A stretch of 64,000 nucleotides of DNA from Gemmatimonadota bacterium (GCA_020348925.1 CP070758.1:4959775-5023774), one strand, 5' to 3'. Counted from the first letter of the stretch, positions 6,991 through 31,209 are shown. Program-made: numbers and translations. Notes: generated from the sequence alone by a model not told the origin.

Positions 6991-8064
6991 TCAGCTTTCA
7001 GCCAATCCCTCAGTCACCATGTCTCCAATTTGAGATGTACTCAGCCCACTGGCCGCCGAGAGCGATGCAATCTGTTTTGAAGCGAGGAGAAACTCCACTC
7101 TTTTACCTATCCGTTGCGCGCCTCGCTCCTCTCCCAGAAACTCGAGCATCATCTTTATCGTTTCGATGGTAGCCAGAGGGTTGGCCACGTTTTTACCGGC
7201 ATACTTCGGGGCGGACCCGTGAATGGGTTCAAACATCGAGACCTGCCCCGGATGGATGTTGCCCGACGCGGCCACTCCCATACCGCCCTGGAGCATAGCA
7301 CCCAAGTCTGTAATAATATCTCCGAACATGTTGTTCACGACGATAACGTCAAACCATTCGGGATTTTTGACCATCCACATCGTGGCCGCATCGACGTACG
7401 CATGATCTTTTTCGATATCTTCGTACTCCCGGCCGACTTCTTCAAAGGTTCTCGTCCACAAATCCATGGCCCGAACTGCATTGGCCTTATCGACCAGGGT
7501 CAGCTTCTTGCCCATATTCCGTTTCCTGGCCACGTCAAAAGCGTACCGAATCACCCGTTCCACGCCTTTTCGGGTGAAAATCATCTCCTGGAGGGCCACC
7601 TCATCCGGGGTTCCTTTCTTCAGAAATCCCCCAATACCGGCGTAGAGATCCTCGGTGTTCTCCCTCACCACAACAAAATCGATATCCTCAGGCTTTTTAT
7701 CCTTGAGAGGGCAGAGGTGCTCCGCGTACAACTTTATCGGCCTCAGATTCACATACAGATCAAGCCTGAACCGGATTCCTCCTATGATGGCCCTTTCCAC
7801 GAGACCGACCTCAACACGCGGGTCACCGATGGCCCCCACGAGGATGGCGTCGAACTTCCGAAGCTCATCGAAAATCGCTTCGGGCATCAATTCTCCGGTG
7901 TCCAAGTAGTGCTGAGTACAATAGGGATATTCGACCCGTTCCGTGCCGAACCCCTCAAGTCCCTCAATTTCATCCAAAACCTTGAGACCTTCACGAACCA
8001 CCTCAGGTCCGATACCATCACCAGCAAAAATCGCGATCTTGTAACTCTTCTTCTCTTTTGCCAT
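6991..8064 (-). CDS. leuB: 3-isopropylmalate/isocitrate-family beta-decarboxylating dehydrogenase
   Basis: GDGIGPEV, YVNLRP, VRENTEDLY, DKAN, NMFGDIITD, FEPIHGSAP. Substrate cannot be proven from sequence. Confidence 0.8.
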   Translation of the reverse strand: MAKEKKSYKIAIFAGDGIGPEVVREGLKVLDEIEGLEGFGTERVEYPYCTQHYLDTGELMPEAIFDELRKFDAILVGAIGDPRVEVGLVERAIIGGIRFRLDLYVNLRPIKLYAEHLCPLKDKKPEDIDFVVVRENTEDLYAGIGGFLKKGTPDEVALQEMIFTRKGVERVIRYAFDVARKRNMGKKLTLVDKANAVRAMDLWTRTFEEVGREYEDIEKDHAYVDAATMWMVKNPEWFDVIVVNNMFGDIITDLGAMLQGGMGVAASGNIHPGQVSMFEPIHGSAPKYAGKNVANPLATIETIKMMLEFLGEERGAQRIGKRVEFLLASKQIASLSAASGLSTSQIGDMVTEGLAES

Positions 8065-8139
8065 TTTCTGTACCCTATTCTTTAAACTGATAAACTGAAA
8101 ATCAAGTTCCGTAGCGATGCATGTGCTCTACCGTAATCA

Positions 8140-8652
8140 TCATTCTCGTAATGGCTTACTTTTTTGTGACAGGGCGGCCACGAACCTCATCAGGCCTCCT
8201 TCGGCGACGATTTCCTGAATGAACTCGGGCAGAGGTTCCGTCTCAAAGGAAAGGTTTTTGGTCACATTGAAAATTTTTCCTGCAGTGGGATCGATCTCCA
8301 GTGTGTCCCCCGTCTCGATACCATCCACAGCCTCGGGGCACTCGAAAATGGGCAGCCCGATGTTGATGGCATTTCGATAAAAAATACGGGCGAAACTCTT
8401 GGCGATGACACAGGAGACGCCGGCCGCCTTGATGGACAGAGGTGCGATCTCGCGCGAACTGCCGCATCCGAAATTGGTCTCCGCCACGATGATATCTCCC
8501 GGACGCATGTTCTTCACGAAATCCGGATCAAGGTCCTCCAGGCAATGTTTGGCCAATTCGCTGGCCTCAGCGATATTTGCATACCGCCCCGGGATAATGA
8601 CATCGGTATCGATATTCCTGCCGTATTTCCAGGTCCGGCCCCTCAGCATCAT
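8140..8652 (-). CDS. leuD: Isopropylmalate/homoaconitate hydratase small subunit
   Basis: NIDTDVIIPGRY, NFGCGSSRE, SFARIFYRNAINIGLP. Confidence 0.88.
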   Translation of the reverse strand: MMLRGRTWKYGRNIDTDVIIPGRYANIAEASELAKHCLEDLDPDFVKNMRPGDIIVAETNFGCGSSREIAPLSIKAAGVSCVIAKSFARIFYRNAINIGLPIFECPEAVDGIETGDTLEIDPTAGKIFNVTKNLSFETEPLPEFIQEIVAEGGLMRFVAALSQKSKPLRE

Positions 8653-9930
8653 CTACACGACCTCCTCCGGATGCGCAATCTTTCCCGCCACAGCCGACGC
8701 AGCCGCCACCGCCGGACTGGCCAGATAGATTTCACTGCTGAGCGGTCCCATGCGCCCGACGAAATTGCGATTGCTCGTGGAGACACACCGCTCCCTCTCC
8801 CCCAGTACGCCCAGGTGTCCACCGATACACGGACCGCAGGAGGGCGTGCTGAAGGCGCATCCCGATTCGATGAAGGTCTCCGCAAGCCCCTCATGGATCG
8901 CCTGAAGGGCAACCTTCTGTGTGCCGGGGAAGATGAGCGCCCGAACCTTCGGATGGACCCTCTTCCCTTTGAATACTTCCGCCGCAATGCGAAGATCCTC
9001 GATCCGGCCGTTGGTGCAGAAACCGATTACGACCTGATCGATGTCCACCTCTCCCACTTCGCGAACCGGCTTCACATTCTCCGGTAAGCTGGGAACAGCT
9101 ACTTGAGGTTCAATTTCGGACAGATCGTATTCCAATGTCCTGACATATTCGGCATCCGGATCACTTTTAAAATTCCTCATTCTCGATTCATGATCCTCAA
9201 TTGTCCCTTTGACATACTCCACAGTCTTTTCATCGGCTTCAAAAATGCCCGTCTTGGCTCCGGCTTCTATGGCCATGTTGGCCATGGTGAACCGATCAGC
9301 TATACTCAAATGGGTCACGCCCTCTCCGGTGAACTCCAGAACCTGGTAAATAGCCCCGTCAACGCCGAGATCCCCGATAGTGTAGAGAATGATATCCTTC
9401 CCGCTGACCCATTTGCCCGGTTGTCCGTAATAAACCAACTTGATCGATTGGGGCACCCGCAGCCACACCTGTCCAATTGCGAAGGCAGCCGCCACATCGG
9501 TGCTGCCCACCCCAGTGGCAAAAGCTCCCAAAGCCCCGTAGGTACACGTATGGGAGTCACCCCCGATGATCAAGTCGCCCGGGGCCACAAGACCCTCCTC
9601 CGGCAGGAGAACGTGCTCGATCCCTCCCCGACCGACCTCGAAGTAATGGGTGATCCCGTATTCTTGGGCAAACCGGCGAACCGCTTTGGTAATCTCCGCC
9701 GTTTTCATGTCCTTGTTGGGCGTGAAATGGTCTGGCACGAGTGCGATCTTTTCCGGATCAAAGACGCGCTTCGGCTTAATCTTCTCAAATTCTTGAATGG
9801 CCAGAATCGCAGACAGCTCGTTGGCCATGACCAGATCGATCACGGCCATGATGAGCTCACCGGCCCGGACCTCTTCCCGGCCGGCGTGAGCGGCAAGAAT
9901 TTTTTCGGCTATAGTCATACTCATGGTCAA
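8653..9930 (-). CDS. leuC: Isopropylmalate/homoaconitate hydratase large subunit
   Basis: [38 protein letters not shown]. Confidence 0.88.
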
Positions 9931-9933
9931 AAT

Positions 9934-11253
9934 CTATACCGGATGATCCTCTCGAAAACGCTTGAGCCGTCGAGCGAGCACCTCGAATTTCTCCTCGCCG
10001 GTAAGAGATGTGCAGACCCTCAAACCCTCAAGGCGGGTGCTCCCCGTAATCTCCAACGTCGTTGCACTGAGCCCGTAATAGACCAGCTCCTTGAGCAGCT
10101 CACCTCCGGAGAACCCCGGATAGGAGACCGTGAAATAGAATCCGTCCGCCAAGGGCTTTTCAAGATCCATATCATAGACGAGTTGAAATCCATTCTCCTT
10201 GAACGCTTTTCTCATCAATGCGGCTCTTCGCCCGTACTCTTTTAGGGGCTCCACGAAATTCAACGTGCCTGAACCGGCCGCCTCAAACATGGCCGCCAGA
10301 GCATGCTGCGGTCCCTGCGGGACACTGGATGTCGTGGGATACATTCCCCCCTGAACGAAGGCCTCAAGGACTCGCTTCGATCCAAAATGCTCCCGAAGAT
10401 CATCATACTCTTTATGAATGAATTTTGGTGAAATAATGGTGACTGCAGCCCGCTGTCCCGCATAGCTAAATATTTTCGAGGCACTAATGAGAACAAAGGC
10501 GTTGTCGGCATACCGGGCGATGGTCGGAGGATACGGCTCCTCTCCCGGCTTGCTGTAATCCTGCCGAAAATCCATACAGAGGTAGGCCACGTCCTCAATG
10601 GCCACAACGTCATACTCGTTGAATAAATTTCCCATCTCCTGCAATTCATCATCCGTAAAAACAATCCACGTTGGATTGTTGGGACTGTTCCACATCACTC
10701 CGCCGATGTCCCCTTTCTTGAGTCTTTTCTGTATTCTGTCGATCAGTTTCGACCCGCGCGTCTCATAGAAATCAATTGAATCCGTCTTCAAGCCGAGGAA
10801 ACGAGTCTGGCTCTTGTTCACAGAAAATCCGGGATCAATATACAGGATCGTATCTTTCTTCTTTCTCATCCTGCCGGCAACGGCTTGGCTCAGAAATCCT
10901 CCCTGCATATTCCCCACAGTCGGGACGCAGCACTCCGGCCCGACATCGAGATCGAGAAATTTCTTGACAAAGGTCGCTGCTGCCTGTTTCAGACGGGCAA
11001 TACCGTCAAAGGGAGCGTATTGAGAGGCAATACCCTCTCTCGTTAAAGCATGAACTTCGGCCTGTATGCCAATCTCATTGGCCGGAAGCCCGGGGATACC
11101 GAATTCCATGCGGATAAATTCGACACCCAACTCCTGTTCAATCGCGTTCACCACACGATTGGCATCACGGATGGAAGCACTTCGAAAATCGACACGGTTC
11201 TCCCGCACAATACGATCGACGACATCGCGGTCAAAGGGAACATCACCTTTCAT
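9934..11253 (-). CDS. PLP-dependent class I/II aminotransferase
   Basis: NSPNNPTW, EDVAY, SASKIFSYAGQR (PLP lysine). Overlaps the 3' end of the LeuA-like gene; alternative start at 11280. Confidence 0.85.
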   Translation of the reverse strand: MKGDVPFDRDVVDRIVRENRVDFRSASIRDANRVVNAIEQELGVEFIRMEFGIPGLPANEIGIQAEVHALTREGIASQYAPFDGIARLKQAAATFVKKFLDLDVGPECCVPTVGNMQGGFLSQAVAGRMRKKKDTILYIDPGFSVNKSQTRFLGLKTDSIDFYETRGSKLIDRIQKRLKKGDIGGVMWNSPNNPTWIVFTDDELQEMGNLFNEYDVVAIEDVAYLCMDFRQDYSKPGEEPYPPTIARYADNAFVLISASKIFSYAGQRAAVTIISPKFIHKEYDDLREHFGSKRVLEAFVQGGMYPTTSSVPQGPQHALAAMFEAAGSGTLNFVEPLKEYGRRAALMRKAFKENGFQLVYDMDLEKPLADGFYFTVSYPGFSGGELLKELVYYGLSATTLEITGSTRLEGLRVCTSLTGEEKFEVLARRLKRFREDHPV

Positions 11254-12499
11254 TTTGGGCTTCCTTTCCCGATTGGACAATGGCCGTTATCTCATCATCC
11301 GTTAAGACAAAATTGGCATGCTTGGCTGCATCAAATATTCGGTTCACCAAGGTTCCCTCCGGCTCAATGTTGTGCTGTTCCAGCCAATATATAACATTTG
11401 ATTCTCCACTCATTGGTCCGATCTCAATTTTCTGTTTCAGCCCGAAAGCACCCGCCGGCACACCGGAATAGACCCTGTCAGCAAGCCAGGCGTCCCCCTT
11501 TTTCTGTGCCTTTATCACCGCCGCAGCGTGAACGCCTGTGGCGGTCCGAAAAGCATCTTCACCGACGACCGGATAGTTCTTGGGCAGAGGTACGTGACAG
11601 GCTTCGGCAACAAGCCTGCAGTATTCCGATAGTTTCGTCAGATCCTGATCGATCCAGCCCAGCAGCCTGAAATTGACCAAAAGCAAATCCATGGGGGTGT
11701 TGCCCACTCGCTCGCCGATGCCGAGAGCGGTCCCATGGACACGATCAGCCCCGGCAGCCACAGCCGCAATCGTATTCGGTACGGACAACCCTCTGTCTCT
11801 GTGCCCATGCCAATCGATTTTTACGTCCTCACCTGTCTCAGCCACAACCTCTCTGACGTATGAAATGAGCCGGCCCACCCCTTCAGGAATGGCATGACCG
11901 ACGGTATCGCAGACACAGATCCGTCTGGCACCGCATTCAATAGCCGTGGTATACAGTTTTTTGACCGTTTCCGGTGTGGCGCGGGTCGTATCCTCGGTTA
12001 CGTACATCACCGGCAAGTCGTGACCGACCACGTAGGTTACTGCCTCCTCGGTGTGTTTGAGCATTCTATCAAGCGTCCATCCTTCTGCGTATTGCCGGAT
12101 GGGGCTCGATCCGATGAAAACCGATGCCTCGATGGGAAGACTTAATTTCTGGGAAATACTGATGATCGGATCAATGTCAACCTTCAGGGTACGGGCAGCG
12201 CAGTTTGCTTCAATGTTCAGTTTGGCCTGTGCGATCTCCTGGGCCAAAGCCGTCACATGTTCGACAGCCCTCGGTCCCGCCCCAGGCAGCCCGATATCCG
12301 CGCTGTGGATGCCCAGCTCGTCCATGAGATGCAGGATACGTATCTTCTCATCAATAGTCGGATCCTTCACCGACGGCGATTGAATTCCATCACGCAAGGT
12401 CTCATCATCAAACTCAATCACCCCTCCCGGTTTCCACCCCTCTGCAATTTCATTCCAATCGAAAATGAGCTCTTTTTCCTCGAGATTTTTCATACTCAT
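11243..12499 (-). CDS. LeuA-family (DRE-TIM) acetyl-CoA condensing synthase lacking the C-terminal allosteric domain
   Basis: DETLRDGIQ, CDTVG, HGHRDRG, GIGERVGN, GVHA. Only 418 aa. Could be an isopropylmalate, homocitrate or Re-citrate-type synthase. Confidence 0.85.
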   Translation of the reverse strand: MSMKNLEEKELIFDWNEIAEGWKPGGVIEFDDETLRDGIQSPSVKDPTIDEKIRILHLMDELGIHSADIGLPGAGPRAVEHVTALAQEIAQAKLNIEANCAARTLKVDIDPIISISQKLSLPIEASVFIGSSPIRQYAEGWTLDRMLKHTEEAVTYVVGHDLPVMYVTEDTTRATPETVKKLYTTAIECGARRICVCDTVGHAIPEGVGRLISYVREVVAETGEDVKIDWHGHRDRGLSVPNTIAAVAAGADRVHGTALGIGERVGNTPMDLLLVNFRLLGWIDQDLTKLSEYCRLVAEACHVPLPKNYPVVGEDAFRTATGVHAAAVIKAQKKGDAWLADRVYSGVPAGAFGLKQKIEIGPMSGESNVIYWLEQHNIEPEGTLVNRIFDAAKHANFVLTDDEITAIVQSGKEAQNER

Positions 12500-13386
12500 C
12501 TCACCTTTTCAAGCAGTTCTTCCCATGTTTCATCCACATTGTGCTGAATTTGGTCGATCTCCGCCTGCGTTAGATGTCGAAACCGACCTTGAAGTTTCAG
12601 ATACTCTTTCACGGCAATCGGACCCGGATCTAAGGTAATCGTATACCTTTTTCCGTACTCAATCTCATAAAGAGGGTAGATCCTGGACTCCACGGCCAGC
12701 CGGGCCACCTTCACAGAAATATCGGAGGGCGTTTTCCATCCGCTGGGACACGGTGAAAAGACCTGAACATATCGAGTTCCGAAAATCGCCTTGGCCTTCT
12801 TCAGCTTGTTCACATAGTCTTCGGGAAAGGCCACCGATGCTGAGGCTGCATAGGGGATCTTGTGCGCGGCCATGATGGCCATCATATCTTTCTTGGGTCG
12901 ATCTTTGGGATGATCGTAGGGCGTCGTTCCGGTCCAAGCCCCCCAGGGAGTTGCAGAACTCCTTTGAATACCTGTATTCATATAAGCCTCGTTATCATAA
13001 CACACGTACAAAATATTTTCGTTCCGTTCCGCCGCAGCGGATAAAGCCTGCAATCCAATGTCAAAGGTGGCTCCATCACCACCCCATGCCAGGACGGTGA
13101 CATTATCAACGCCTCGCACATCGAGCCCGGCTCGCACCCCCACTGCCGCCGAGGCCGTCGTCTCAAAAGCGGTATGAAGAAAGGGCACCATGGACGAGGA
13201 ATGGGGAAACATCCCATCAACCACAGCCGAGCAGCCGGCCGGAACGACGAGGATCGTCCTCTTCCCCAGGGCCTTGAGGGCCAGTCTCATGGCCAGTTTC
13301 TCCCCACAGCCCGGACAGGCCAAGTGGCCGCATGAGAGCCATTCCTGCTCAGGAATCCTCCCCTCTATCTTTTGATATCCAACCAC
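12496..13386 (-). CDS. 2-oxoacid:ferredoxin oxidoreductase beta subunit (POR/VOR type)
   Basis: ACPGCG, GGDGATFDIG (TPP binding), YDNEAYMNTGIQRS, SPCPSGW. Confidence 0.9.
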   Translation of the reverse strand: MVGYQKIEGRIPEQEWLSCGHLACPGCGEKLAMRLALKALGKRTILVVPAGCSAVVDGMFPHSSSMVPFLHTAFETTASAAVGVRAGLDVRGVDNVTVLAWGGDGATFDIGLQALSAAAERNENILYVCYDNEAYMNTGIQRSSATPWGAWTGTTPYDHPKDRPKKDMMAIMAAHKIPYAASASVAFPEDYVNKLKKAKAIFGTRYVQVFSPCPSGWKTPSDISVKVARLAVESRIYPLYEIEYGKRYTITLDPGPIAVKEYLKLQGRFRHLTQAEIDQIQHNVDETWEELLEKVR

Positions 13387-14519
13387 AGGACCGGTTCCTC
13401 CGGCTCATCATGAGTATTCATATATTCGAAGGCTCTACGAATCGTTGCCATGGTCACGTCTCTCCCCCCCAAACCGGCTATAAAACCGAAAAGGAGTGGC
13501 CGCTCCTTCTCGGTGTATAACACAGATTTTATCTCTTGAAAAATGATACCGGTCTGTCCGAAGGAGATGTTTCGATCGATGACACCAACTTTATGCACGC
13601 CTCCGAAGGCCTGCCGGATCTCTTCAACTGGAAAGGGTCGAAAGATACGAATCCTTGCGGCCCCGACACTGTAACCCTCATCCCTGAGTTCATCGACAAC
13701 GCACCGTGCCGTACCCGCCATTGTTCCCGACGAAACGATAAGCGTCCCGGCATCCTCTATTCGATAGAACTCTAAGGGATTATAACTCCGCCCGAAAGTT
13801 TCTTTAAACTCAAGAGCGGCTTTATTCACTACGCCCCTCGCCTCCTCCATCGTCTTCTGAATCTTGTACCGCATCTCTGCGTAGTACTGGGGAACGGTCC
13901 CTCCATAAAACGTGTGAGGATCATCGACGTCCAAGGTATAGGGTGCCTCTCGCCGGGGCAAATAGGTATCGACGTCCTTTTGATCCGGAATATCGACCGG
14001 CTCTGAGGTGTGGGAGAGGAAGAATCCGTCCATCATAATCATACTCGGCAGCTGGATCTCCTCCGAGATTCGGTACGCCTGAATGACCGAATCGAGAACC
14101 TCCTGATTGCTCTCGCAATAGAACTGCAGCCAGCCTGTATCCCGTTGGGCCAGACTGTCATTGTGATCACACCAGACGGTCCAGGGCGCGGCCATGGCCC
14201 GATTCACGTTGACCAAGACGATAGGAAGCCTAGCTCCCACGGTCCAGTGGAGCAGCTCATGCATGAGGGCTAGCCCCTGGGCCGACGTCGCCGTAAAAAC
14301 ACGAGCGCCGGCAGCAGACGCACCGATACAACTGGCCATGGCCGAATGCTCCGACTCAACCTTGATAAAACGCGCCTTCAGCTCCCCGCTGGCGTTCCAT
14401 TCGGAAAGTTTCTCAACGACGCTTGTCTGCGGAGTGATGGGGTAGGCTGCGATCACCTCCACTCTCGATAACTTGACAGCCTGAGAGACAGTATAATTAC
14501 CAGTCAGTATTTTCTTCAC
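13365..14519 (-). CDS. 2-oxoacid:ferredoxin oxidoreductase alpha subunit (POR/VOR type)
   Basis: AYPITPQT, VESEHSA, TATSAQGLALMHE, DGFFLSHT, GLGGRD. Confidence 0.9.
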   Translation of the reverse strand: MKKILTGNYTVSQAVKLSRVEVIAAYPITPQTSVVEKLSEWNASGELKARFIKVESEHSAMASCIGASAAGARVFTATSAQGLALMHELLHWTVGARLPIVLVNVNRAMAAPWTVWCDHNDSLAQRDTGWLQFYCESNQEVLDSVIQAYRISEEIQLPSMIMMDGFFLSHTSEPVDIPDQKDVDTYLPRREAPYTLDVDDPHTFYGGTVPQYYAEMRYKIQKTMEEARGVVNKAALEFKETFGRSYNPLEFYRIEDAGTLIVSSGTMAGTARCVVDELRDEGYSVGAARIRIFRPFPVEEIRQAFGGVHKVGVIDRNISFGQTGIIFQEIKSVLYTEKERPLLFGFIAGLGGRDVTMATIRRAFEYMNTHDEPEEPVLWLDIKR

Positions 14520-14578
14520 ATCGAGACTCTGATTCGCCCTAAGTCGGTGCTCTATCCTTCCTTCAAATCGAGTTAAAT

Positions 14579-17036: not shown

Positions 17037-17063
17037 CTTTTTTTCTGTTCCTTACATAACACA

Positions 17064-17194
17064 TGTCATTGCAAGCGACATAAAGGAGCGAAGCAACCTC
17101 TCGAAGTGAATGAGACTCCTTCACTCTCCAGCTCGGAATGACGGAAGATGGAATGAGATTGCCGCGTTCCGATAAACCGGAACTCGCAATGACA
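17064..17194. repeat. GTCATT...AATGAC palindromic (REP-like) element, copy 1
   Basis: TGTCATTGCAAGCG...GAAGCAACCTC...GAGATTGCCGCG...CTCGCAATGACA, with a nested partial right arm ending GGAATGAC at about 17142. Confidence 0.75.
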
Positions 17195-20232: not shown

Positions 20233-21255
20233 TTACGGTGTGACAATCGTCCTCAGTGATTCTCCCTTCCGCAACACGTCGAAAGCGCCGTTGATGTCCT
20301 TCAGGGAGAACTTTTCGGTCACAAGCTCTTTCACTTTTATCTTTCCTATGCGAACCATTTCGATCAACTTCACGTAATCGATAGGGCGACACCCGAGGGA
20401 ACCGATGATTTCCATCTCCCGAAACATGATTCGTCCGGCGTTGACTGAAATGTCCTTGTGGGTGTAACCAACGACGACCAACCGCCCCCCACCCTTAACG
20501 CAGCCAAACGCTTGCTCGATGGTAGCAGGGTTCCCGATGACCTCGAAGGCCACATCGGCACCGCCACCGGTTAGCCTTCGAATCGCTTTTCCCACATCCT
20601 CCACCTCTTTGGCATTGATCGTCTCAACGGCACCCAGCTTTTTCGCCCATTCCAGTTTACCCGGAAGAATATCGACCGCGATGACCGAAGCGCCGATGGC
20701 GGCGGCGATCTGAACCACGTTGATGCCAACGCCTCCGCATCCTATAACCACGACTGAATCACCGGGCTTCACTTCACCACGATTCTTCACGGCGTGATAG
20801 GGCGTCGAGATGGCATCGGCAATAATACACCCCTCGATCAAGGGGATTTCATCTGGGAGATGCAGGGCATCCTTGGCCGGTGCCTTCACAAACTCAGCAT
20901 AGGCCCCATCGACATGGTTACCGTACATGACCATATTCAGGCAGATGTTCTCGCGACCGGTCCTGCAGTAGGCGCATTTGCCGCAGGTCAGTACAGCCGG
21001 TAAGACAACCCGGTCACCGGCCTTGAAATCGGTCACTTTATCCCCGACTCTCTCAACCGTTCCCGAAGGTTCGTGGCCAAGGATCAAGGGCGGCTTCTTG
21101 AAGGTCGGTACCCCATGATCAATGTAGCTGAGATCCGTATGGCACACGCCGCAGGCCGCTACTTTCACCAGAATCTCGTCAGGCCCGATCTTGGGCATCT
21201 CAACCGCCTCGATCTTCAACGGCTGGTTCGGCCCGTGAAAAATTGCAGCTCTCAT
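20233..21255 (-). CDS. Zn-dependent dehydrogenase, probably 6-hydroxycyclohex-1-ene-1-carbonyl-CoA dehydrogenase (Had/BzdX-like)
   Basis: CGVCHTD, LGHE, structural-Zn cysteines CGKCAYCRTGRENIC, GCGGVG, IIGSLGC; position in a bzd cluster. Confidence 0.7.
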   Translation of the reverse strand: MRAAIFHGPNQPLKIEAVEMPKIGPDEILVKVAACGVCHTDLSYIDHGVPTFKKPPLILGHEPSGTVERVGDKVTDFKAGDRVVLPAVLTCGKCAYCRTGRENICLNMVMYGNHVDGAYAEFVKAPAKDALHLPDEIPLIEGCIIADAISTPYHAVKNRGEVKPGDSVVVIGCGGVGINVVQIAAAIGASVIAVDILPGKLEWAKKLGAVETINAKEVEDVGKAIRRLTGGGADVAFEVIGNPATIEQAFGCVKGGGRLVVVGYTHKDISVNAGRIMFREMEIIGSLGCRPIDYVKLIEMVRIGKIKVKELVTEKFSLKDINGAFDVLRKGESLRTIVTP

Positions 21256-24514: not shown

Positions 24515-24802
24515 TTACCAGGAGTGCGTGATGGCATCCTGGGCGCATGCTGCCATACAGGGCAGCGGCGGTCGATTGCTCACCGGCTTGCCGGGCCCGC
24601 AGCTGTATTTGATCTTTTTTCGATGCGCGTCGGTCACCGAGGCGATCATATCCCCTTCGATGGGATCGTACTGATCCTCAATGACCTCCAAAACTTTCGC
24701 CGGACAGGCTTCGACGCAATCGCCGCAGCCGTTGCATTTTTCCGTATCAACTGTTATAAAGTATTCTCCTGACCCGTCCTTATATCCGTAGTTGGCTAAC
24801 AT
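24515..24802 (-). CDS. bzdM: Benzoyl-CoA reductase-associated ferredoxin
   Basis: ANYGYKDGSGEYFIT, CNGCGDCVEACP, C-terminal AITHSW. Confidence 0.8.
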   Translation of the reverse strand: MLANYGYKDGSGEYFITVDTEKCNGCGDCVEACPAKVLEVIEDQYDPIEGDMIASVTDAHRKKIKYSCGPGKPVSNRPPLPCMAACAQDAITHSW

Positions 24803-24820: not shown

Positions 24821-25357
24821 AGTCACAGAGACTCAGAGACACTGAGAAACCCAATTATTTTTTTTCAACCCCACCCTACTCACTTTTAATACACAATTCT
24901 TTTAATACCTTTTTTCAAAACCGCCATATTAAAATTGATGAGTAGTCCTACCTTAAGGTCAGAGGCTTTGCAATATGAGATAACTTGTGCTCGGTGAACT
25001 TCATCAAACCTCTCAACGGATTTAATTTCCAAGACAACTTTACCCTCGACAATAAAATCTAATCTATGTTTACCTACTTGCTCATCCTTGTAAAATATCC
25101 CGATCTCTTTCTGTCTTTCATACTTGATTTTTCTGGAATCAAATTCCTTTGCAAGCGCTTGTTCATAAATCGATTCTAAATAACCAGGTCCCAATTCGCG
25201 GTGAACTTCAATTGCCGCGGAGATTACTTTTTCCGTTATATCGGAATGAGGATACTCTTCTTTCATTCTAAATCCTCATAACCACAGACACCCAGAGATA
25301 CTGAGAATCAATTTAATATTATTCAGTATTCCTCTGAGTCTCTGCGCCTCTGTGGCT
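24821..25357 (-). mobile_element. Repeat-flanked GxxExxY insertion unit
   Basis: 9-nt-periodic CACAGAG-type arms at 24821-24848 and 25280-25307 (direct pair) and 25332-25357 (inverted) bracket an AT-rich ORF between bzdQ and the ferredoxin gene. Confidence 0.6.
24886..25266 (-). CDS. GxxExxY protein (PD-(D/E)XK nuclease-like)
   Basis: VHRELGPGYLESIYEQAL, RLDFIVEGKVVLEIKSV, GLLINF. Confidence 0.92.
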   Translation of the reverse strand: MKEEYPHSDITEKVISAAIEVHRELGPGYLESIYEQALAKEFDSRKIKYERQKEIGIFYKDEQVGKHRLDFIVEGKVVLEIKSVERFDEVHRAQVISYCKASDLKVGLLINFNMAVLKKGIKRIVY

Positions 25358-26225
25358 ATTTCTTTCTCTCTTTCTCCAATAATGCCTTTGCAAACAATGC
25401 TCCTCCAAGAGCACCGGCAATTTGAGTGTCGTGTTTCGGTTTCAGGGCCTCGAAGCCGATCTCCTGTTCGAGCCTTTTAACGACACCGGAGTTTTTGGCT
25501 ATGCCCCCGGTGATGGCAAAATCTTTCTCCACACCAATGCGTTCTAACAGAGTGAAAACCCGATGGGCCATGGCCGAGCAATATGCGGCCAACACCTTAC
25601 TCTTCGGCCAGCCCTCTCGCAACAGTGATGTTGCCTCGGACTTGGCGAAGACGACGCAGGTGCTGCTCACCGGCTCGGGTTCCTCTTCGACGTCGAACGA
25701 CATGTCTCCAACCTCTTCAATGGAAACGGACAGGAGATCTGCAAAGACTTCCATACCCCGGCCCGTCCCGGCGGCGCACTTGTCGTTCATGAGAAAGTTG
25801 GTCACTTTACCACGCTCATCGCAATGAATGGCCTTGCAATCCTGGCCACCCATGTCGAGCACGGTGCGCACACCCGGTCCATACATCCAGTTGGCCCCAC
25901 GGGCGTGGCAGGCGATTTCAGTTATGGGCCTCTTGGCAAAGGGTACATTCACGCGCCCGTAACCCGTCCCGACGACGTACTGCACATCCTCCAGCGTCAT
26001 TCCCGTCTCCTCCATGGCCCAATTCATCGCGTTCCGAGCGCTGTCCGGGCTGTCCGATCCGGTGCGCATATTACTGTATGCAAAGAGCTGACCGTCCGTC
26101 ATAATCACCGCCTGGGAACTGACGGACCCGACGTCAACGCCGGCTGTCACGGACTCAGCCTGCTTCCAATCAATGTCAGGCGAGTGCCAATTATACTCCT
26201 TCCATCGCCAGTATTCTTCAGCCAT
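25356..26225 (-). CDS. bzdQ: Benzoyl-CoA reductase, Bzd type, ATPase subunit Q
   Basis: N-terminal YWRWKE, GVDVGSVSS, GTGYGR, EIACHARGA, DMGGQDCK, MNDKCAAGTGR, CVVFAKSE. Confidence 0.9.
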   Translation of the reverse strand: MAEEYWRWKEYNWHSPDIDWKQAESVTAGVDVGSVSSQAVIMTDGQLFAYSNMRTGSDSPDSARNAMNWAMEETGMTLEDVQYVVGTGYGRVNVPFAKRPITEIACHARGANWMYGPGVRTVLDMGGQDCKAIHCDERGKVTNFLMNDKCAAGTGRGMEVFADLLSVSIEEVGDMSFDVEEEPEPVSSTCVVFAKSEATSLLREGWPKSKVLAAYCSAMAHRVFTLLERIGVEKDFAITGGIAKNSGVVKRLEQEIGFEALKPKHDTQIAGALGGALFAKALLEKERKK

Positions 26226-26274: not shown

Positions 26275-27054
26275 TCATTTGTTTTTCGCATGTTCTGCCG
26301 CCACTATTGCTGCCCCCAAGGCACTCACATATTCAGGCTCCTCGGGTATGGAGAATGAAATTTCCAAATTGTCTTCGAGAGACTTCACAAATCCAACGTT
26401 TCGGGCCACGCCTCCGATAAGAGCGACATCCTTCTCAATACCCACTCGCCTGACCATCGATGAGATCCGGTCTGCAATGGCATCGTGCACGGCCCTGGCA
26501 ATATCCTCCTTGGCTGTTTTCGCATGGATAAGCGTGACGACTTCAGACTCCGCGAAGACGGCACACTGCGCATTCATCGGCACGGCCTTCTGAGACTTTA
26601 GGGAGAGCGGTCCCATTTCTTCCAACCGAATCTCTAACGCTCTGGCCATAGCCTCCGTGAAGGAGCCGGCCCCTGCTGCACATTTCTCATTGACGGCAAA
26701 ATCGATCACCTTACCCTTCCCGTCGCTTTTGATGGCTCGGCCTTCCTCTGCACCAACATCGATAATAGTCTTTGCCGAGGGAAAGAGAAAGTTGGCCCCT
26801 TTGGCATCAGCCCCGACTTCTGTGACCGTATCCTGGGCGTACTGCGCTTCTTTCATCCCGGCGCCTGTTGCCGTAATGTTGGATACGTCACTCTTGGACA
26901 TGCCCGCCATTTCCAAAGCCGCTGCAAAAGACTGCTCCGCCGCCGCTCTCTGATCGAATCCGCTCAAGACAATGCTCTTAGCAACGATCTCGCCGTCCTT
27001 TAAGAGGACCACTTTTGTATTCTTCGCCCCGCAATCAACTCCAGCCGTAATCAT
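26275..27054 (-). CDS. bzdP: Benzoyl-CoA reductase, Bzd type, ATPase subunit P
   Basis: MITAGVDCGAKNTK, DVGAEEGRA, NEKCAAGAG, NAQCAVFAESE. Confidence 0.88.
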   Translation of the reverse strand: MITAGVDCGAKNTKVVLLKDGEIVAKSIVLSGFDQRAAAEQSFAAALEMAGMSKSDVSNITATGAGMKEAQYAQDTVTEVGADAKGANFLFPSAKTIIDVGAEEGRAIKSDGKGKVIDFAVNEKCAAGAGSFTEAMARALEIRLEEMGPLSLKSQKAVPMNAQCAVFAESEVVTLIHAKTAKEDIARAVHDAIADRISSMVRRVGIEKDVALIGGVARNVGFVKSLEDNLEISFSIPEEPEYVSALGAAIVAAEHAKNK

Positions 27055-27097
27055 GAGAATCTCCTCCGGATGCATTTAATATTTCGTTTCCCAAAAA

Positions 27098-28414
27098 TTA
27101 CTCCTCGATCTTTTTCATATCCAATGTTTCCATAAAGGCATCAATCCTGGCCATGGTCCGGGTCTCATCAAACTCCCGCTCGTCGCCCATATTGCCTTCA
27201 AAAGTCATGACCGGAAATCCGGCTTTTTGAAGGGCCAGCCTGTTTTCAGCAATGCCCACCGTAAGGCCCTCGCAGCCACGGTTGTAATGGAGCATGACAC
27301 CGTTCAGTTTCCATTCCTTGGCGATGCGGATCATCATATCGCTCTTATAATCCGGTGAATAGAAATGCTGCCACTCGGGCTTGCTCAGATTCCACTCGGC
27401 TAATATTCTTAAGGCCTGATCCCGATCTTTGATCTCGATTCCCTTCTGCTGCGGTGTCGTTCTCGGTCCCCACATCCCGTCCTCCTTTACTTCCCACATT
27501 CCGATGAGACCGAAGGTATACAAGGAACCGACCGAGACCGTACCAAATTTCTCGAGATAGCGAAACACCCGCAAGAACCCCCAGGGCGGCTGCGTGTCGG
27601 TCATGACCCGGCACTGCTCGTTCCCGACGGCCGCGATGCCGCGCTCCACCCGATCCTTCACTTCGTCTCTCAACTCCTCGTAGTAATCGGCCACGATCTG
27701 ACTGTGTTTCATCAAGGTACCCAACACGTAGAGGGAATACATGGATTTCTCATCCAATGGAGCCGGGATCGTCTTGTTGAGCGTACAGATCTCGGCCCAG
27801 ACCGATGTGGCCCGACATTCATCGTTGACGGCCTTGATCAGAAACTCATCGTTGTATGTCCGACCCGTCACCTTCTCCATCCAATCGATGCCGTCGTGCA
27901 TCTGACCCACGACATAATTGAGTTTATTTTCTGATAACTGTTCATAGGGATAAGGGCCGACCGCCACGTCGATGCAGTAATGGGGAATGTCCGGCTCCAG
28001 ATCCGTTACCACCTGGTACCATTTGGCGTGGCTGCAGCAGATGTGATCCTGCCAGATGAAGTCCGGTTTCGGGAACTTGCCGCCGAAGGCATATTTATCA
28101 AGAATGATTGAACCCCAGTAATTGCGCATATACGAGCACAGATCCCGGGCATAGCCCTTCCGCTCTACGGCTTCAAGGCACTCCAGGGAAAACTTCTTAT
28201 CAAAGGCAATGGACGCGGCATAGGGTTCAGATGTAATGTTATACACATCCTCACCCAGTCCGGCCGGGATGGCATCGAAGCTCCAGGCCCCCCCCGCCCA
28301 ACGAATGCCACCCTTCTCATGGGCCTGGGCATAATCCCGATAGTAATTCTCCCGAATCTCCTTGGCCCTATTCCACGTCTTCAAAGGTTCGGTCGGATAT
28401 TTTGTTTTCGCCAT
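27098..28414 (-). CDS. bzdO: Benzoyl-CoA reductase, Bzd type, subunit O
   Basis: [53 protein letters not shown]. Confidence 0.9.
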
Positions 28415-28506
28415 TTTTCGCTCCTTCACAACAATACTTCACATCTGTCATCGAATATCTGCTACCTTTCTCTTTATCCCTGAGCCTCTGTGGGATAAAT
28501 TCCAAT

Positions 28507-29640
28507 TTAAAACAGATCCTCTTCCCTCAACATCTCCAGAAACGCTTCAACCCTCACCTGGAACTGCCCCACAGGCACGGTCACGTCAAATTCGAGGAAG
28601 AGAGTCGGAATATCGTTTTCCTCAAACAGTTTCTTAATGGCCGGAATATCGAGCTCGTGGGGATCGCAGAACTTCTGCTGGATGAGGATAGCTCCCTGGA
28701 CTCCGTATTCCTTGGCCAGATTCAACATGTGAGGTAATCTCGTCCTCTCCGGCCAGTCCTTGGAGGGGCAGGCAGGACGGTTGATGTAGCGTGCTGCGAT
28801 GGCCTCGAGACGGTTCTCGTTGGGCGTCACCTCGTTCCAGAAGTAGCGGCTGCCTGTGCAGTGGTCATCGACGACAAAGGTGGCCCCCAGGGATTCCACC
28901 ATTGACAAAAATTCCGTATCATCGTCCTCACTGCCTAAAATCATCAAGCGCTCTCCCGCAGGCCGGTCCAACGTCCGGTTCTGGAGTTCGTTCAGCGTCT
29001 CCTCATGAATGCGATTGTGCTCCTCTTTATCAATCATCTGGCTTGAAACAACCATGTACATTGCTTCCAGACCGGTGAGAGGCGGATTATCCCCTTTACG
29101 CATCTCATAAATCTGCTTCATGAGACGGCGGTTTTTATTGACCGTCTCTATACCACGGTCAAGATCATTCTCTGTAATGGGCTTCCCTGTCCATTCTTCG
29201 ATCGATTTCTGAAACTCTTTCAGCTCACCGGTCAGGTAGGGCAGCGCCCGCGGACTCTGTATGTGGTGGGGAGTCGTCATGTAATAACTGTACTCGATGG
29301 GAATATGGAGCTGCCAGGAGGTGAAGGCCTGCCTGATATGAAGGCATGACTGGGCGATCATGATGCCGTCCAGATAATCGTAGCGGCCTTTGAGTCCCTG
29401 GGCCAGGCAGTCGCGGCAGAAGGGACAGAACATGCCAAAGATGTGCGGCTCGGTCACGTCCTGGGGCTCGTGGCTGCCCAGTATCCTCACGGGCAAGATA
29501 TCCGCTGCACACAAAATCTCTTCAGGCACGTAAGTGCAGAAGTAGCCCATGACCTTGCCACCGTTTTTTTCTTTCCAATTCTTGACGTATTCATGTCGAT
29601 TGTCGTACCATTCTTGAAACATTTCAATCATGTGGTACAT
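28507..29640 (-). CDS. bzdN: Benzoyl-CoA reductase, Bzd type, subunit N
   Basis: GYFCTYVPEE, HIFGMFCPFCRDCLAQGL, DDHCTGSRYFW, QQKFCDPHE. Confidence 0.9.
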   Translation of the reverse strand: MYHMIEMFQEWYDNRHEYVKNWKEKNGGKVMGYFCTYVPEEILCAADILPVRILGSHEPQDVTEPHIFGMFCPFCRDCLAQGLKGRYDYLDGIMIAQSCLHIRQAFTSWQLHIPIEYSYYMTTPHHIQSPRALPYLTGELKEFQKSIEEWTGKPITENDLDRGIETVNKNRRLMKQIYEMRKGDNPPLTGLEAMYMVVSSQMIDKEEHNRIHEETLNELQNRTLDRPAGERLMILGSEDDDTEFLSMVESLGATFVVDDHCTGSRYFWNEVTPNENRLEAIAARYINRPACPSKDWPERTRLPHMLNLAKEYGVQGAILIQQKFCDPHELDIPAIKKLFEENDIPTLFLEFDVTVPVGQFQVRVEAFLEMLREEDLF

Positions 29641-29749
29641 CCTTTCCTTAGGCTAAGGTTGCAGTTTCTTAATCTCGATAAAATCCTTACGGATGAATTC
29701 CTTTTATTAAATGGAGTTAAGGCGTAAGCCTTTTAATAAAGTTATGGAC

Positions 29750-30745
29750 TCATTCCTCCATAAGGAAATTCCCATTGTTTAATGTATTCTCACCCTTGAA
29801 ATAGAGCGCGTACTGAAAACCCTGCTGTATCGCCGCTGCGCCGTATTCGCCTTTCTTATTGAGAGCGATGAAAGCATCCTGAAAATCAGGTTTTCCTTTG
29901 TGACGTTTAATAATTCTCTCCACTGCTTCCTCGCAAGCCTCCTGGGGCGACATACCGTGGCGCATGTTCTCCACCACCAGAAAACTTCCGCAGACTTTGA
30001 TCACTTCCTCGCCTTTTCCAGTGGCGGCCGCTGCACCGACCTCGTTATCGACATACATACCGGCCCCGATGAGGGGGGAATCGCCGACACGGCCGTGGAT
30101 TTTGTATGCCAGACCTGACGTGGTACAGGCCCCGGAAAGATTTCCTTCGGCGTCGATGGCCACCATACCGATGGTATCATGATCCTCTCTCGGGGGGAGC
30201 CAATCGTCATCGTCGCTCATACCTTGTTTCCAGCGCAGCCATGTCTCCCGAGCTTTATCGGTCAGCAAATCTTCTTCCTTAAAACCATGAGCCTTAGCAA
30301 AGCGAAGGGCTCCTTCACCCACCAGCATGACGTGATCCGTCTCCTCCATCACTTTCCGGGCGACAGAAATTGGATTTTTAATATTTTGTAGAAATGCCAC
30401 AGCCCCGGCATTTCCGTCCGGTCCCATGATGGAGGCATCCAGGGTTACGGTTCCATTCTCATCAGGCCGACCGCCGTACCCCACACTCATCACTTCAGGA
30501 TCACTCTCGGACACATTGACCCCTTTCTCAACAGCATCGAGAGAGGAACCACCCGACGACAACACTTTCATAGCCGCCTCATTGGCTGCCATGCCATGTT
30601 CCCAGGTGGAAATCACGACGGGCTCCCCTGAGAATCCAGGTGAAGCCATGGTGTTGAAGGAGGAAAGATCACGCAGAGTGTAAGCGGCAACACCGGCAAC
30701 GGCAGTAGCTTTTATAAAATCTCTTCGTGTAAATTTCTTTCCCAT
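29750..30745 (-). CDS. Tat-exported N4-(beta-N-acetylglucosaminyl)-L-asparaginase-like Ntn hydrolase
   Basis: TRRDFIK Tat motif, SVGYGGRPD, HD/TIGM autocleavage site, GRVGDSP, ATGKGE. Confidence 0.85.
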   Translation of the reverse strand: MGKKFTRRDFIKATAVAGVAAYTLRDLSSFNTMASPGFSGEPVVISTWEHGMAANEAAMKVLSSGGSSLDAVEKGVNVSESDPEVMSVGYGGRPDENGTVTLDASIMGPDGNAGAVAFLQNIKNPISVARKVMEETDHVMLVGEGALRFAKAHGFKEEDLLTDKARETWLRWKQGMSDDDDWLPPREDHDTIGMVAIDAEGNLSGACTTSGLAYKIHGRVGDSPLIGAGMYVDNEVGAAAATGKGEEVIKVCGSFLVVENMRHGMSPQEACEEAVERIIKRHKGKPDFQDAFIALNKKGEYGAAAIQQGFQYALYFKGENTLNNGNFLMEE

Positions 30746-30783
30746 GAGACACCTACCTAATTAAAAGTGAGAGTCACATCTCC

Positions 30784-31209
30784 TTATACTTCCACATTTC
30801 TCCAAACTTTCATCAACAGCCATTTCAATTGGTTCTTTTCTTCACGGCTAAAATCACCCGTTGCCACCTTGTTTACCTCTGGTGCAAGAGGGAGAAGAGT
30901 TTCCTTCAGACTTTTTCCTTTTTTCGTCAGATATATTTTTATAACACGCCGATCAGTATCGTTGCGACGCCTCTCGACAAGTTTATCCCGTTCCATCCGA
31001 TCCACAATACCTGTGATAGTCGGCCCGTCGAAATAGAGTCTTTTGCCCAGATCCGTCAAGGACAACCCATCCTCCTCCCACAGGACATAGAGTACGGCAT
31101 ACTGGGTGGAAGTAATAGTATGCTCAGCCAGACGAACATCGAGAGCCCGCTTCATCGACCGTGCCGCCCTCGTCATCAAAAAGCCCAGACTGTCGTCAAA
31201 TCGTTCCAC
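30784..31209 (-). CDS. MarR-family transcriptional regulator
   Basis: Winged HTH with ITGIVDRME...DRRVIKIYLTKKG. Confidence 0.92.
   Translation of the reverse strand: MERFDDSLGFLMTRAARSMKRALDVRLAEHTITSTQYAVLYVLWEEDGLSLTDLGKRLYFDGPTITGIVDRMERDKLVERRRNDTDRRVIKIYLTKKGKSLKETLLPLAPEVNKVATGDFSREEKNQLKWLLMKVWRNVEV

Follow-up and report, generated by a model that had tools for sequence, protein, structure and literature searches.

Leucine-pathway-like genes in a benzoyl-CoA reductase array suggest a possible one-carbon elongation route from aromatic amino acids to benzoyl-CoA

Why should genes resembling those of leucine biosynthesis follow, on the same strand, the genes for an anaerobic benzoyl-CoA reductase (BCR)? 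The question is raised by positions 6,991 to 31,209 of a 64,000-nucleotide stretch of a Gemmatimonadota bacterium (GCA_020348925.1, CP070758.1:4959775-5023774), referred to as the window, in which bzdNOPQ and two 2-oxoacid:ferredoxin oxidoreductases (OFORs), Kor and Por, are followed by a short synthase gene, here leuA', an aminotransferase gene and leuC, leuD and leuB. Our tentative answer, with a probability of roughly 0.4, is that the leu-like genes may be a one-carbon 2-oxoacid elongation module of an anaerobic aromatic-acid catabolic supercluster, feeding arylpyruvates to benzoyl-CoA. At the same level of confidence, phenylalanine, tyrosine and perhaps also phenylacetate may be broken down to benzoyl-CoA in bacteria of several phyla, through what could be termed homologation-enabled beta-oxidation.

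Gene families were assigned from profile scores set against curated NCBIfam cut-offs (TIGR and PRK models), together with Pfam and PDB matches, and the family models agree with the gene calls of the original prediction. All 25 of the 25 long open reading frames (ORFs) between 31209 and 6991 lie co-oriented on the minus strand. Their order in the direction of transcription is marR, Asparaginase_2, bzdN, bzdO, bzdP-like, bzdQ, a GxxExxY gene, ferredoxin, bzdV-like, GNAT, had, hbd1, hbd2, crt, korD, korA, korB, korC, porA, porB, leuA', aminotransferase, leuC, leuD and leuB, and those on which the argument turns are the following.

28507-29640, minus strand: bzdN, TIGR03190 500.9 bits (cut-off 453.8)
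27098-28429, minus strand: bzdO, TIGR03191 708.9 bits (cut-off 448.6)
26275-27075, minus strand: bzdP-like, second ATPase subunit; only the generic activase model TIGR00241 passed, 222.8 (cut-off 125.4)
25356-26225, minus strand: bzdQ, TIGR03192 445.9 bits (cut-off 380.2)
24515-24802, minus strand: ferredoxin of 95 aa, 2x[4Fe-4S] type
21975-24509, minus strand: BzdV-like fusion of 844 aa, HoxU/NuoG-like Fe-S domains with a GltD-like NAD(P)H flavoprotein
20233..21255, minus strand: had, Had-like Zn-dependent dehydrogenase of the MDR family, TIGR03201 260.5 bits, under the cut-off of 338.65
19352 to ~20200, minus strand: hbd1, 3-hydroxyacyl-CoA dehydrogenase, PRK07819
18349-19212, minus strand: hbd2, 3-hydroxyacyl-CoA dehydrogenase, PRK07819 (the two hbd products 349.8 and 378.8 bits, cut-off 319)
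17515-18315, minus strand: crt, crotonase, crotonase model 335 bits, under the cut-off of 394
17259 to ~17483, minus strand: korD, under the equivalog cut-off
15879-17036, minus strand: korA, PRK08659 511.6 bits (cut-off 411)
15121-15882, minus strand: korB, under the equivalog cut-off
14579-15124, minus strand: korC, under the equivalog cut-off
13365-14519, minus strand: porA/vorA-like, best to the archaeal PorA model, 499.9, under its cut-off
12496-13386, minus strand: porB/vorB-like, best to the VorB (3-methyl-2-oxobutanoate dehydrogenase beta) model, 394.3, under the cut-off of 405
11243..12499, minus strand: leuA', short Claisen synthase of the LeuA/homocitrate synthase family, 416-418 aa, PF00682
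9934..11253, minus strand: class I/II aminotransferase, PDB 3g0t family, 418 bits to 3g0t, which is labelled 'putative aminotransferase'
8653-9930, minus strand: leuC, TIGR02083 662.5 bits (cut-off 610.65)
8140-8652, minus strand: leuD, TIGR02084 230.7, just under the cut-off of 245.85; passes the subfamily model TIGR02087
6991..8064, minus strand: leuB, 3-alkylmalate dehydrogenase (decarboxylating), PRK03437 450.5 bits (cut-off 393)

Taken alone, the reductase is simply one more new member of a family already described. Its catalytic subunits BzdN and BzdO, together with BzdQ, exceed the curated Bzd cut-offs, and by these models bzdNOPQ is predicted to encode an ATP-dependent class I BCR of the Azoarcus type. 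The bzdP-like subunit is 35% identical to BzdQ, two different activase-type subunits being present, and no BzdP-specific model stood among its profile matches. In common with the bzd cluster of Azoarcus/Aromatoleum, the array has a four-subunit Bzd-type reductase, a MarR-type regulator at its head and, downstream, a ferredoxin (BzdM there) and a BzdV-like gene, which are presumed to be the electron supply to the reductase; as for the KorAB-fed BCR of Thauera, an OFOR lies within the cluster. Unlike in Azoarcus, dch and oah lie outside it, at 2.22 Mb, and the host belongs to an uncultured lineage of the Fibrobacteres-Chlorobi-Bacteroidetes (FCB) type, with one same-family genome in the collection. 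What departs from described bzd and bcr clusters is the run, without a change of strand, into kor, por and leu-like genes, a continuation that, to our knowledge, none of them has. A search of literature listings, drawn mostly from outside the subscription journals, returned no paper on leu-like genes in BCR clusters, nor any on a route to benzoyl-CoA by homologation. The leu-like module integrated here combines known parts in a new way and may have a new function.

Is the linkage peculiar to this genome? It is not: bzd/leu linkage recurs across phyla. We searched 80 loci around LeuA' orthologues (up to 10 kb on each side, many contigs being shorter) with the proteins of the window and of related clusters (E <= 1e-15, at least half of the query covered). 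Beta-oxidation-type genes were present at 35 of them and aromatic-pathway markers at 18 (BCR-like 11, oah at >=50% identity 14, had at >=60% identity 6, indolepyruvate oxidoreductase IorAB 2), while leuB, leuC or leuD occurred at 23, 22 of which also have beta-oxidation or aromatic genes, the exception being a 2.9-kb contig. By homology clustering, crt is the commonest true neighbour of LeuA' (25/80 loci), and orthologues of the window's marR (50-60% identity) stand inside leu/BCR clusters at 7/80. One such case is a KSB1 locus (L007), in which leuB, leuC, marR, thiolase, fadB-like, leuD, leuA', oah (554 bits, cut-off 464), a short-chain dehydrogenase/reductase (SDR) gene, thiolase, dch-like, bzdNOPQ, ferredoxin and bzdV follow one another; the four bzd genes are the same as those of the window (66-81% identity), as are the ferredoxin and the bzdV homologue (48% identity) downstream of bzdQ. 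The leu-like and ring-pathway genes are here interleaved, not merely adjacent. The interleaved order is kept in loci of metagenome-assembled genomes (MAGs) labelled Ignavibacteriales/Ignavibacteria (L031, L056, L064, L077) and Bacteroidetes (L045, L057), in which the BCR-like enzyme is more distant (26-40% identity); those of the loci that extend far enough also include a Had orthologue of ~70% identity.

Had orthologues (66-70% identity) were found at 6/80 loci and in the Ignavibacteriales-type genome G152, including Gemmatimonadota loci with no BCR gene in the stretch covered. The latter loci have the order crotonase, Bcd-like dehydrogenase, HisC-family aminotransferase, leuB, leuC, leuD, hbd, amidohydrolase, crt, leuA', SDR, thiolase, Had orthologue, and electron-transfer flavoprotein (ETF) beta and alpha. 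IorAB stands near the module in four lineages: in the Ignavibacteriales-type genome G004, had is followed by IorA (706.7 bits, cut-off 650.9) and IorB; G152 has had, a Bcd-like acyl-CoA dehydrogenase, IorA, IorB and a molybdenum (Mo) enzyme of the xanthine dehydrogenase (XDH) family with fused 2Fe-2S domains; an Anaerolineae locus (L071) has a Liv-type ABC transporter, an AMP-forming ligase, IorA, IorB and LeuA'; and a fourth (L034) has IorAB and XdhC/MobA-like genes near LeuA'. The order porAB-leuA'-aminotransferase, in turn, was found among the 80 loci only in the sole same-family relative (L004, 75-77% identity), on 6.5 kb of a genome in 670 contigs that has bzdO over the cut-off on a separate contig. 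Overall, the gene sets that accompany LeuA'/LeuCD/LeuB comprise aromatic-type aminotransferases, arylpyruvate oxidoreductases, short-chain-type acyl-CoA dehydrogenase and ETF, hydratase/dehydrogenase/thiolase, enzymes of ring reduction and opening and, in two lineages, Mo-enzyme genes.

Some smaller features of these loci may be mentioned. At the G152 locus (L104), the XDH-family enzyme, with N-terminal 2Fe-2S domains (1-2417), lies after iorB and may be of the 4-hydroxybenzoyl-CoA reductase type; an ORF with an HNH-endonuclease domain (8646-9797) stands between the BCR-like genes and had, and an M1-peptidase-like ORF (3038-4459) between iorA and iorB. At L071, a HepT-like toxin-domain ORF (8848-9300) separates iorA from iorB.

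What LeuA' might catalyze can be approached from its sequence. No other protein encoded in the genome matches PF00682 (HMGL-like), and LeuA' lies far below every isopropylmalate synthase (IPMS), citramalate and homocitrate model, reaching at best 216 bits against any IPMS model (cut-off 517) in a match that covers model positions 17-378 of 504, with no LeuA_dimer regulatory domain. For all 120 relatives the Pfam column likewise shows PF00682 only, among the matches listed. The best PDB match is the homocitrate synthase (HCS) 6ktq, at 130 bits, and ESM Atlas look-ups returned generic names only. The family (~412 aa, 61-77% identity across phyla) has at least 8000 relatives at E <= 1e-20 and is found, with phyla as given per record, in Gemmatimonadota, Acidobacteriota, Ignavibacteriales, Bacteroidota, KSB1, Planctomycetota, Chloroflexota and others. 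Catalytic and selectivity positions were mapped through PDB alignments, and the DRE-TIM catalytic set R36, D37, E169, H231, H233 and H324 is invariant in 121 aligned sequences; H324, the second conserved His on the TtHCS alignment, we take to be the catalytic His of the subdomain.

For the benzylmalate synthase HphA, a 2026 paper describes five active-site positions presumed to govern which substrate is used (PMC12961565). Its residue table gives, for positions 1-5, Ala, Asp, Ala, Met and Ser in HphA, His, Arg, Thr, Ser and His in HCS, and Leu, Glu, Ser, Asn and Glu in IPMS, and our PDB alignments reproduce the HCS and IPMS residues. The comparison of LeuA' with HphA was made through this table rather than by direct alignment. 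LeuA' has Ala101, Met165, Val167, Cys195 and His255, each invariant or nearly so in the 121 sequences (Ala101 in 121/121), so that by the published table none of the five matches IPMS, and the small Ala at position 1 is shared with HphA. Position 1 is presented there as decisive, HphA A73L having 17-fold higher activity with 2-oxoisovalerate (PMC12961565). HphA, HphCD and HphB of Nostoc punctiforme, which belong to anabaenopeptin biosynthesis and homologate phenylalanine and tyrosine, offer a chemical precedent with the same three enzyme families, the same proposed chemistry, in which arylpyruvate and acetyl-CoA form benzylmalate and this is turned into the 2-oxoacid with one more carbon, and a short synthase that has no feedback domain. 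The Hph pathway, however, is biosynthetic and ends in homo-amino acids for peptides, whereas decarboxylation and beta-oxidation are proposed here. With the canonical LeuA/LeuCD/LeuB pathway the module shares the families, LeuC and LeuB scores over the cut-offs and the catalytic residues of the synthase; it differs in the ilvBCD genes not found, the missing regulatory domain, the five selectivity residues (by the same table) and its setting in catabolic acyl-CoA clusters.

Two other functions were considered for LeuA' and set aside. That it is a 3-hydroxy-3-methylglutaryl-CoA (HMG-CoA) lyase was considered because LeuA' is the sole HMGL-family protein here and in three of the other genomes examined (G001, G003, G005) and because crt is the gene most often found near it. 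IPMS-type models, however, match LeuA' at 1e-64 and an HMG-CoA lyase model at 8e-6, and its LeuA-type subdomain is kept. That it is a Re-citrate synthase was rejected in view of the Si-citrate synthase of this genome and of 5/5 other LeuA' genomes.

The two OFORs are of unequal composition. korDABC is a four-subunit set, and the gene order is delta-alpha-beta-gamma (kor) followed by a second, por/vor-like, alpha-beta pair. porAB has alpha and beta only, with no gamma or delta of its own; korC (gamma) lies directly upstream, and no gamma or delta gene is nearer than korC and korD of the adjoining set. Kor and Por may share KorC and KorD; in Pyrococcus, the pyruvate (POR) and 2-oxoisovalerate (VOR) enzymes have a gamma subunit in common. 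Against the models for the phenylglyoxylate enzymes PadG and PadI, PorA and PorB reach 314.7 and 244.7 (cut-offs 700). Elsewhere in the genome there are two further Kor-like alpha/beta sets (42-50% identity) at 3.199-3.213 Mb, which makes the kor of the window one of three, and a canonical gamma-delta-alpha-beta set at 1.9553-1.9583 Mb, with alpha and beta assigned by homology and gamma and delta presumed from ORF size and position. Ahead of a second PorAB paralogue (G000:C1:1410275-1414675), 59-63% identical to that of the window, stand a 191-aa ORF, which may be for a gamma subunit, and the gene of a GltD/BzdV-like protein of 593 aa; this locus may encode an NAD(P)H-linked 2-oxoacid oxidoreductase.

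The window belongs to a closed 5.04-Mb contig, of a genome estimated to be 96.3% complete. In the closed genome ilvB, ilvC and ilvD were not found over the cut-offs of TIGR00118, TIGR00465 and TIGR00110, and neither was prephenate dehydratase (PF00800), while 14/14 control genomes matched in each case. The original prediction had asked for a second leu operon and for aro/pheA genes: LeuA' is the sole PF00682 protein, chorismate synthase is present and prephenate dehydratase is among the genes not found. The organism is probably auxotrophic for valine, isoleucine and phenylalanine, or salvages them. Beta-oxidation and ring enzymes absent from the window are encoded at 2.22-2.23 Mb, where oah (566.5 bits, cut-off 464.45) is found with genes for a dch-like crotonase, an SDR, two thiolases and acyl-CoA dehydrogenases of the Bcd-like kind. 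Si-citrate synthase, aconitase and a gene like isocitrate dehydrogenase (IDH) are grouped at 4.238-4.243 Mb, the citE/citF-like genes at 1.111-1.118 Mb have two further LeuCD-like sets next to them, and an AksF-like dehydrogenase is encoded at 4.7365 Mb. In the second of these regions (G000:C1:1110797-1118421), CitF (511.9 bits, over the cut-off) and a CitE-like gene adjoin a LeuCD-like pair and a 634-aa fused LeuC-LeuD-like protein, which makes this a second module of the aconitase family.

With these parts the favored reading, homologation-enabled beta-oxidation, can be set out. The aminotransferase would convert phenylalanine, and possibly tyrosine, to the arylpyruvate (phenylpyruvate for the former), LeuA' would condense phenylpyruvate with acetyl-CoA to 2-benzylmalate, and LeuCD and LeuB would turn this into 2-oxo-4-phenylbutyrate and CO2. 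An oxidoreductase of the PorAB type (IorAB elsewhere) would then form 3-phenylpropionyl-CoA while reducing ferredoxin, and acyl-CoA dehydrogenase, crt, hbd (or Had-like) and thiolase would yield benzoyl-CoA and an acetyl-CoA that repays the one spent in the condensation. BzdNOPQ would finally dearomatize benzoyl-CoA, with reduced ferredoxin from the Kor or Por enzymes and BzdV; the 3-arylpropionyl-CoA could alternatively lead to 4-hydroxybenzoyl-CoA. The extension would make sense because phenylacetyl-CoA, the direct product of phenylpyruvate, is not open to beta-oxidation, whereas the acyl-CoA longer by one carbon is. The scheme gives a place to the genes from the aminotransferase to leuB, to porAB, crt and hbd, and to the reductase of the window. 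Its substrates, its direction and the use of PorAB rather than Kor for the elongated acid are what we infer; the gene content and the linkage are as observed.

In the known anaerobic route, phenylpyruvate is converted to phenylacetyl-CoA, this to phenylglyoxylate (PadBCD) and this to benzoyl-CoA (PadEFGHI). Start and end points are the same as those proposed here, and a 2-oxoacid oxidoreductase likewise forms the CoA ester. However, alpha-oxidation by a molybdenum enzyme makes the side chain shorter in the known route, while the proposed one would lengthen it by one carbon before beta-oxidation, and PorA and PorB of the window match the Pad models only weakly. If the proposal is true, the anaerobic catabolism of aromatic amino acids would have a central route, so far undescribed, that needs no alpha-oxidizing molybdenum enzyme; it would also be a new catabolic use of 2-oxoacid chain elongation and a new peripheral route into the benzoyl-CoA hub, which is central to anaerobic aromatic degradation in sediments; its OFOR step would yield arylpropionyl-CoA together with low-potential electrons for the ring reductase. 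A large family now annotated '2-isopropylmalate synthase' would have to be reassigned, and leucine prototrophy would have been wrongly inferred for uncultured genomes of the FCB group, Acidobacteriota, Gemmatimonadota and Chloroflexota.

Other explanations have to be weighed against this one, and among them the original prediction had placed ordinary leucine synthesis that merely lies next to bzd. It is now unlikely, being weakened by the ilvB, ilvC and ilvD genes not found, by the Ala/Met/Val/Cys/His of LeuA' in place of the Leu/Glu/Ser/Asn/Glu tabulated for IPMS, by the lack of a feedback domain and by the distribution of LeuA', present in 2/121 genomes of the class holding G004 although 92 of them gave no ilvD match. 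A salvage-type synthesis, in which PorAB would carboxylate isobutyryl-CoA to 2-oxoisovalerate (or valine would be transaminated), LeuA', LeuCD, LeuB and the aminotransferase would follow, and the bzd neighbourhood would be meaningless, is improbable too, even if any leucine synthesis without ilvBCD would have to begin in this way. It would account for the LeuC and LeuB scores over isopropylmalate cut-offs, the best match of PorB to a 3-methyl-2-oxobutanoate dehydrogenase model and the translational coupling of porB and leuA', and PMC6338057 infers leucine synthesis in a related lineage that lacks valine and isoleucine synthesis, an example of how such genes are interpreted at present. LeuA', however, is unlike IPMS at 5/5 tabulated positions, with Ala where, by that source, Leu favors 2-oxoisovalerate; it occurs in 2/92 of the G004-class genomes that gave no ilvD match; leuC and leuD are separated by marR, thiolase and fadB inside BCR clusters of several phyla; and 22/23 of the leuBCD loci hold acyl-CoA catabolic or aromatic genes. 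Somewhat less probable still is the original prediction's proposal of a shikimate-independent route in the opposite direction, with PorAB carboxylating benzoyl-CoA reductively to phenylglyoxylate, LeuA'/CD/B extending this to phenylpyruvate and the aminotransferase yielding phenylalanine. The order porAB, leuA', aminotransferase, leuCD, leuB fits it, a small Ala101 is compatible with an aryl substrate in the light of the HphA table, and chorismate synthase is present in a genome where prephenate dehydratase was not found (14/14 controls matched). It is weakened by G004, which has the same cluster plus prephenate dehydratase, and by the IorAB, acyl-CoA dehydrogenase with ETF, FadB and extra thiolases that accompany the module elsewhere and would have no role; PorA and PorB, moreover, are well below the phenylglyoxylate models, and at the Gemmatimonadota loci, which have the module too, no OFOR gene is among those annotated.

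The elongation of small 2-oxoacids is about as doubtful as that reversed route. LeuA' would then be a citramalate or ethylmalate synthase for growth on substrates that yield only acetyl-CoA (benzoate, fatty acids), either from acetyl-CoA through pyruvate (PorAB) and 2-oxobutyrate to propionyl-CoA or from 2-oxobutyrate through 2-oxovalerate to butyryl-CoA. Such a role would suit the genes with which LeuA' is most often linked (crt, hbd, thiolase and Bcd-like dehydrogenase), a LeuD whose closest solved small subunit is 3vba, of an isopropylmalate/citramalate isomerase (183.7 bits; 2pkp, of homoaconitase, gives 143.3), and the many aerobic Acidobacteriota in which LeuA' stands alone, so that its function need not involve aromatics. 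Against it, 2-oxobutyrate cannot lead to isoleucine without ilvBCD, it offers no explanation for the nearby IorAB, for the Mo enzyme of the XDH type or for the neighbouring transporter and ligase of the aromatic-acid type, and Ala at position 1 would enlarge the pocket rather than narrow it; citramalate synthases narrow the pocket. Far less probable than any of these are the dicarboxylate options of the original prediction, in which 2-oxoglutarate would be extended to 2-oxoadipate and glutaryl-CoA, or a trio of Re-citrate synthase, aconitase and IDH would feed Kor. Kor does adjoin, the best PDB match of LeuA' is an HCS and, in the published table, His255 agrees with HCS at position 5. However, Ala101 and Met165 replace the tabulated His and Arg of HCS at positions 1 and 2, two residues that presumably bind the distal carboxylate of the 2-oxodicarboxylate. 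The LeuD loop, which we take to determine specificity, reads RYANIA, compared with RYLVYT in 3vba and PYLRTT in 2pkp, with Asn where the solved homoaconitase subunit has Arg, and Si-citrate synthase is present in all five other LeuA' genomes and, with its aconitase and IDH-like set, elsewhere in this one. The catabolic reading, a direction that the original prediction did not contain, accounts better than any of these rivals for the combination of IorAB nearby and interleaved ring-pathway genes. Even if the guessed substrate is wrong, a leuA'/CD/B set without ilvBCD and its interleaving with benzoyl-CoA genes in several phyla need explaining.

The distribution of LeuA' bears on the homologation proposal from both sides. 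In the class holding G004 (121 genomes), LeuA' was found in 2, oah in 13 and ilvD in 29; the two genomes with LeuA' both have oah but not ilvD, and no genome has oah together with ilvD. Since the 92 genomes with no ilvD match include only these 2 with LeuA', LeuA' is no general answer to missing ilv genes. Five other LeuA'-holding genomes, including G001, G003, G004 and G005, were tested: LeuA' is the sole HMGL-family protein in 3/5, ilvD and ilvC exceed the cut-off only in 1/5, where there is a canonical LeuA of 541 aa too; 3/5 (G004 included) have prephenate dehydratase, 2/5 (G004 and G005) LEU2-type LeuC and 1/5 (G005) a Bzd-type O subunit over the cut-off.

Several observations weigh against homologation-enabled beta-oxidation. 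By the published table, one of the five selectivity positions of LeuA' matches HphA, positions 2-5 being M/V/C/H against D/A/M/S, and the models whose cut-offs LeuC and LeuB exceed are named for isopropylmalate enzymes. None of the linked genes is present at 42/80 loci, mostly of Acidobacteriota; in the Acidobacteriota class holding G001, LeuA' occurs in 56/101 genomes, and G001 and G003 gave neither LEU2-type LeuC nor Bzd-type reductase. At 23/80 loci, of the Acidobacteriota type (e.g., L011-L017, L025), LeuA' adjoins an M20/ArgE-DapE-family peptidase, with no leuBCD, beta-oxidation or ring-pathway genes nearby, and the family thus has at least one context that the catabolic model leaves unexplained. 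LeuA' is missing from 11/13 oah-positive genomes of the G004 class, which makes the module accessory to the core benzoyl-CoA pathway rather than part of it; it behaves like a peripheral addition. No aminotransferase was found in the annotated stretches of the Ignavibacteriales-type (G004, G152) and KSB1 (L007) clusters, the window has no acyl-CoA dehydrogenase or thiolase, those being ~2.7 Mb away, and IorAB could simply form arylacetyl-CoA independently of LeuA'. Finally, gaps of 139-240 nt in the array would permit separate transcripts, and no RNA dataset was listed for window positions 9000-18900, part or all of which is contained in seven DNA runs of sediment metagenomes from two studies.

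On the coupling of the genes, the original prediction of a tight por-leu junction is borne out by sequence and spacing. The minus-strand ATG at 12499-12497 (leuA') overlaps the porB stop TGA at 12498-12496 in an ATGA, the ATG at 12493 being the likelier leuA' start since an identical database protein has 416 aa. The pairs korA/korB and korB/korC overlap by 4 nt each, porA and porB overlap, and the ATG of the aminotransferase at 11253 overlaps the leuA' stop; leuC begins 3 nt after the aminotransferase, leuD 0 nt after leuC and leuB 75 nt after leuD. The widest gaps separate GNAT from had (240 nt), korD from korA (222 nt) and hbd1 from hbd2 (139 nt), and internal promoters are possible there. 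As had been noticed by eye, there is no clear intrinsic terminator: no terminator-like site lies between genes on the coding (minus) strand, and terminator-like counts are not above those of shuffled sequences (8 vs 12.5 +/- 3.7 and 16 vs 13.0 +/- 3.8). A near-consensus sigma-70-type promoter (match 11/12) lies at 31289-31260, upstream of marR. Taken together, the gene calls and the coupling of the earlier analysis stand, while ordinary leucine synthesis has lost ground and the dicarboxylate options are disfavored. The database record of the aminotransferase begins at residue 10 of the longest ORF, and an aminotransferase adjoins LeuA' at 3/80 loci.

The remaining members of the array are the following.

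30784..31209, minus strand: MarR-family regulator, first gene of the array, best MarR-family model 80.8 bits
29750..30745, minus strand: Asparaginase_2 / isoaspartyl-peptidase-like protein, PF01112 255 bits; beta-aspartyl peptidase model 135 bits, under its cut-off
24886..25266, minus strand: GxxExxY / PD-(D/E)XK family gene between bzdQ and the ferredoxin gene, TIGR04256 146.6 bits, PF13366 147 bits
21496..21957, minus strand: GNAT acetyltransferase, with GNAT genes at 3/80 related loci

The GxxExxY gene is probably not part of the pathway and looks like an insertion, since L007 has no such gene at that place. Elsewhere in the genome there are two large subunits of the methylmalonyl-CoA mutase (MCM) family (G000:C1:3436793-3438418 and 4608047-4609723), one with a methylmalonyl-CoA epimerase gene next to it and one with meaB. 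For each, the score to the solved 2-hydroxyisobutyryl-CoA mutase is a little higher than those to methylmalonyl-CoA mutases, in family and PDB searches that did not separate the substrates; a route from acetyl-CoA through butyryl-CoA and isobutyryl-CoA to 2-oxoisovalerate would need an isobutyryl-CoA mutase. The array is bordered, 3' of leuB, by unrelated genes (a TPR protein, rpiB, glyA, nrdR, rnfC) and, 5' of marR, by ORFs with no family matches. Further along, window positions 36000-58000 have a GC content of 40-46%, compared with 50-55% in the cluster, and this stretch has genes for a dehydrogenase of the Glu/Leu/Phe/Val type (37636-38937), for two flippases of the polysaccharide type, for Lnt, for a protein resembling phosphoglycerate mutase and for a PorZ-like propeller protein. 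At 57286-63506, two large cargo proteins with type IX secretion system (T9SS) tails are encoded.

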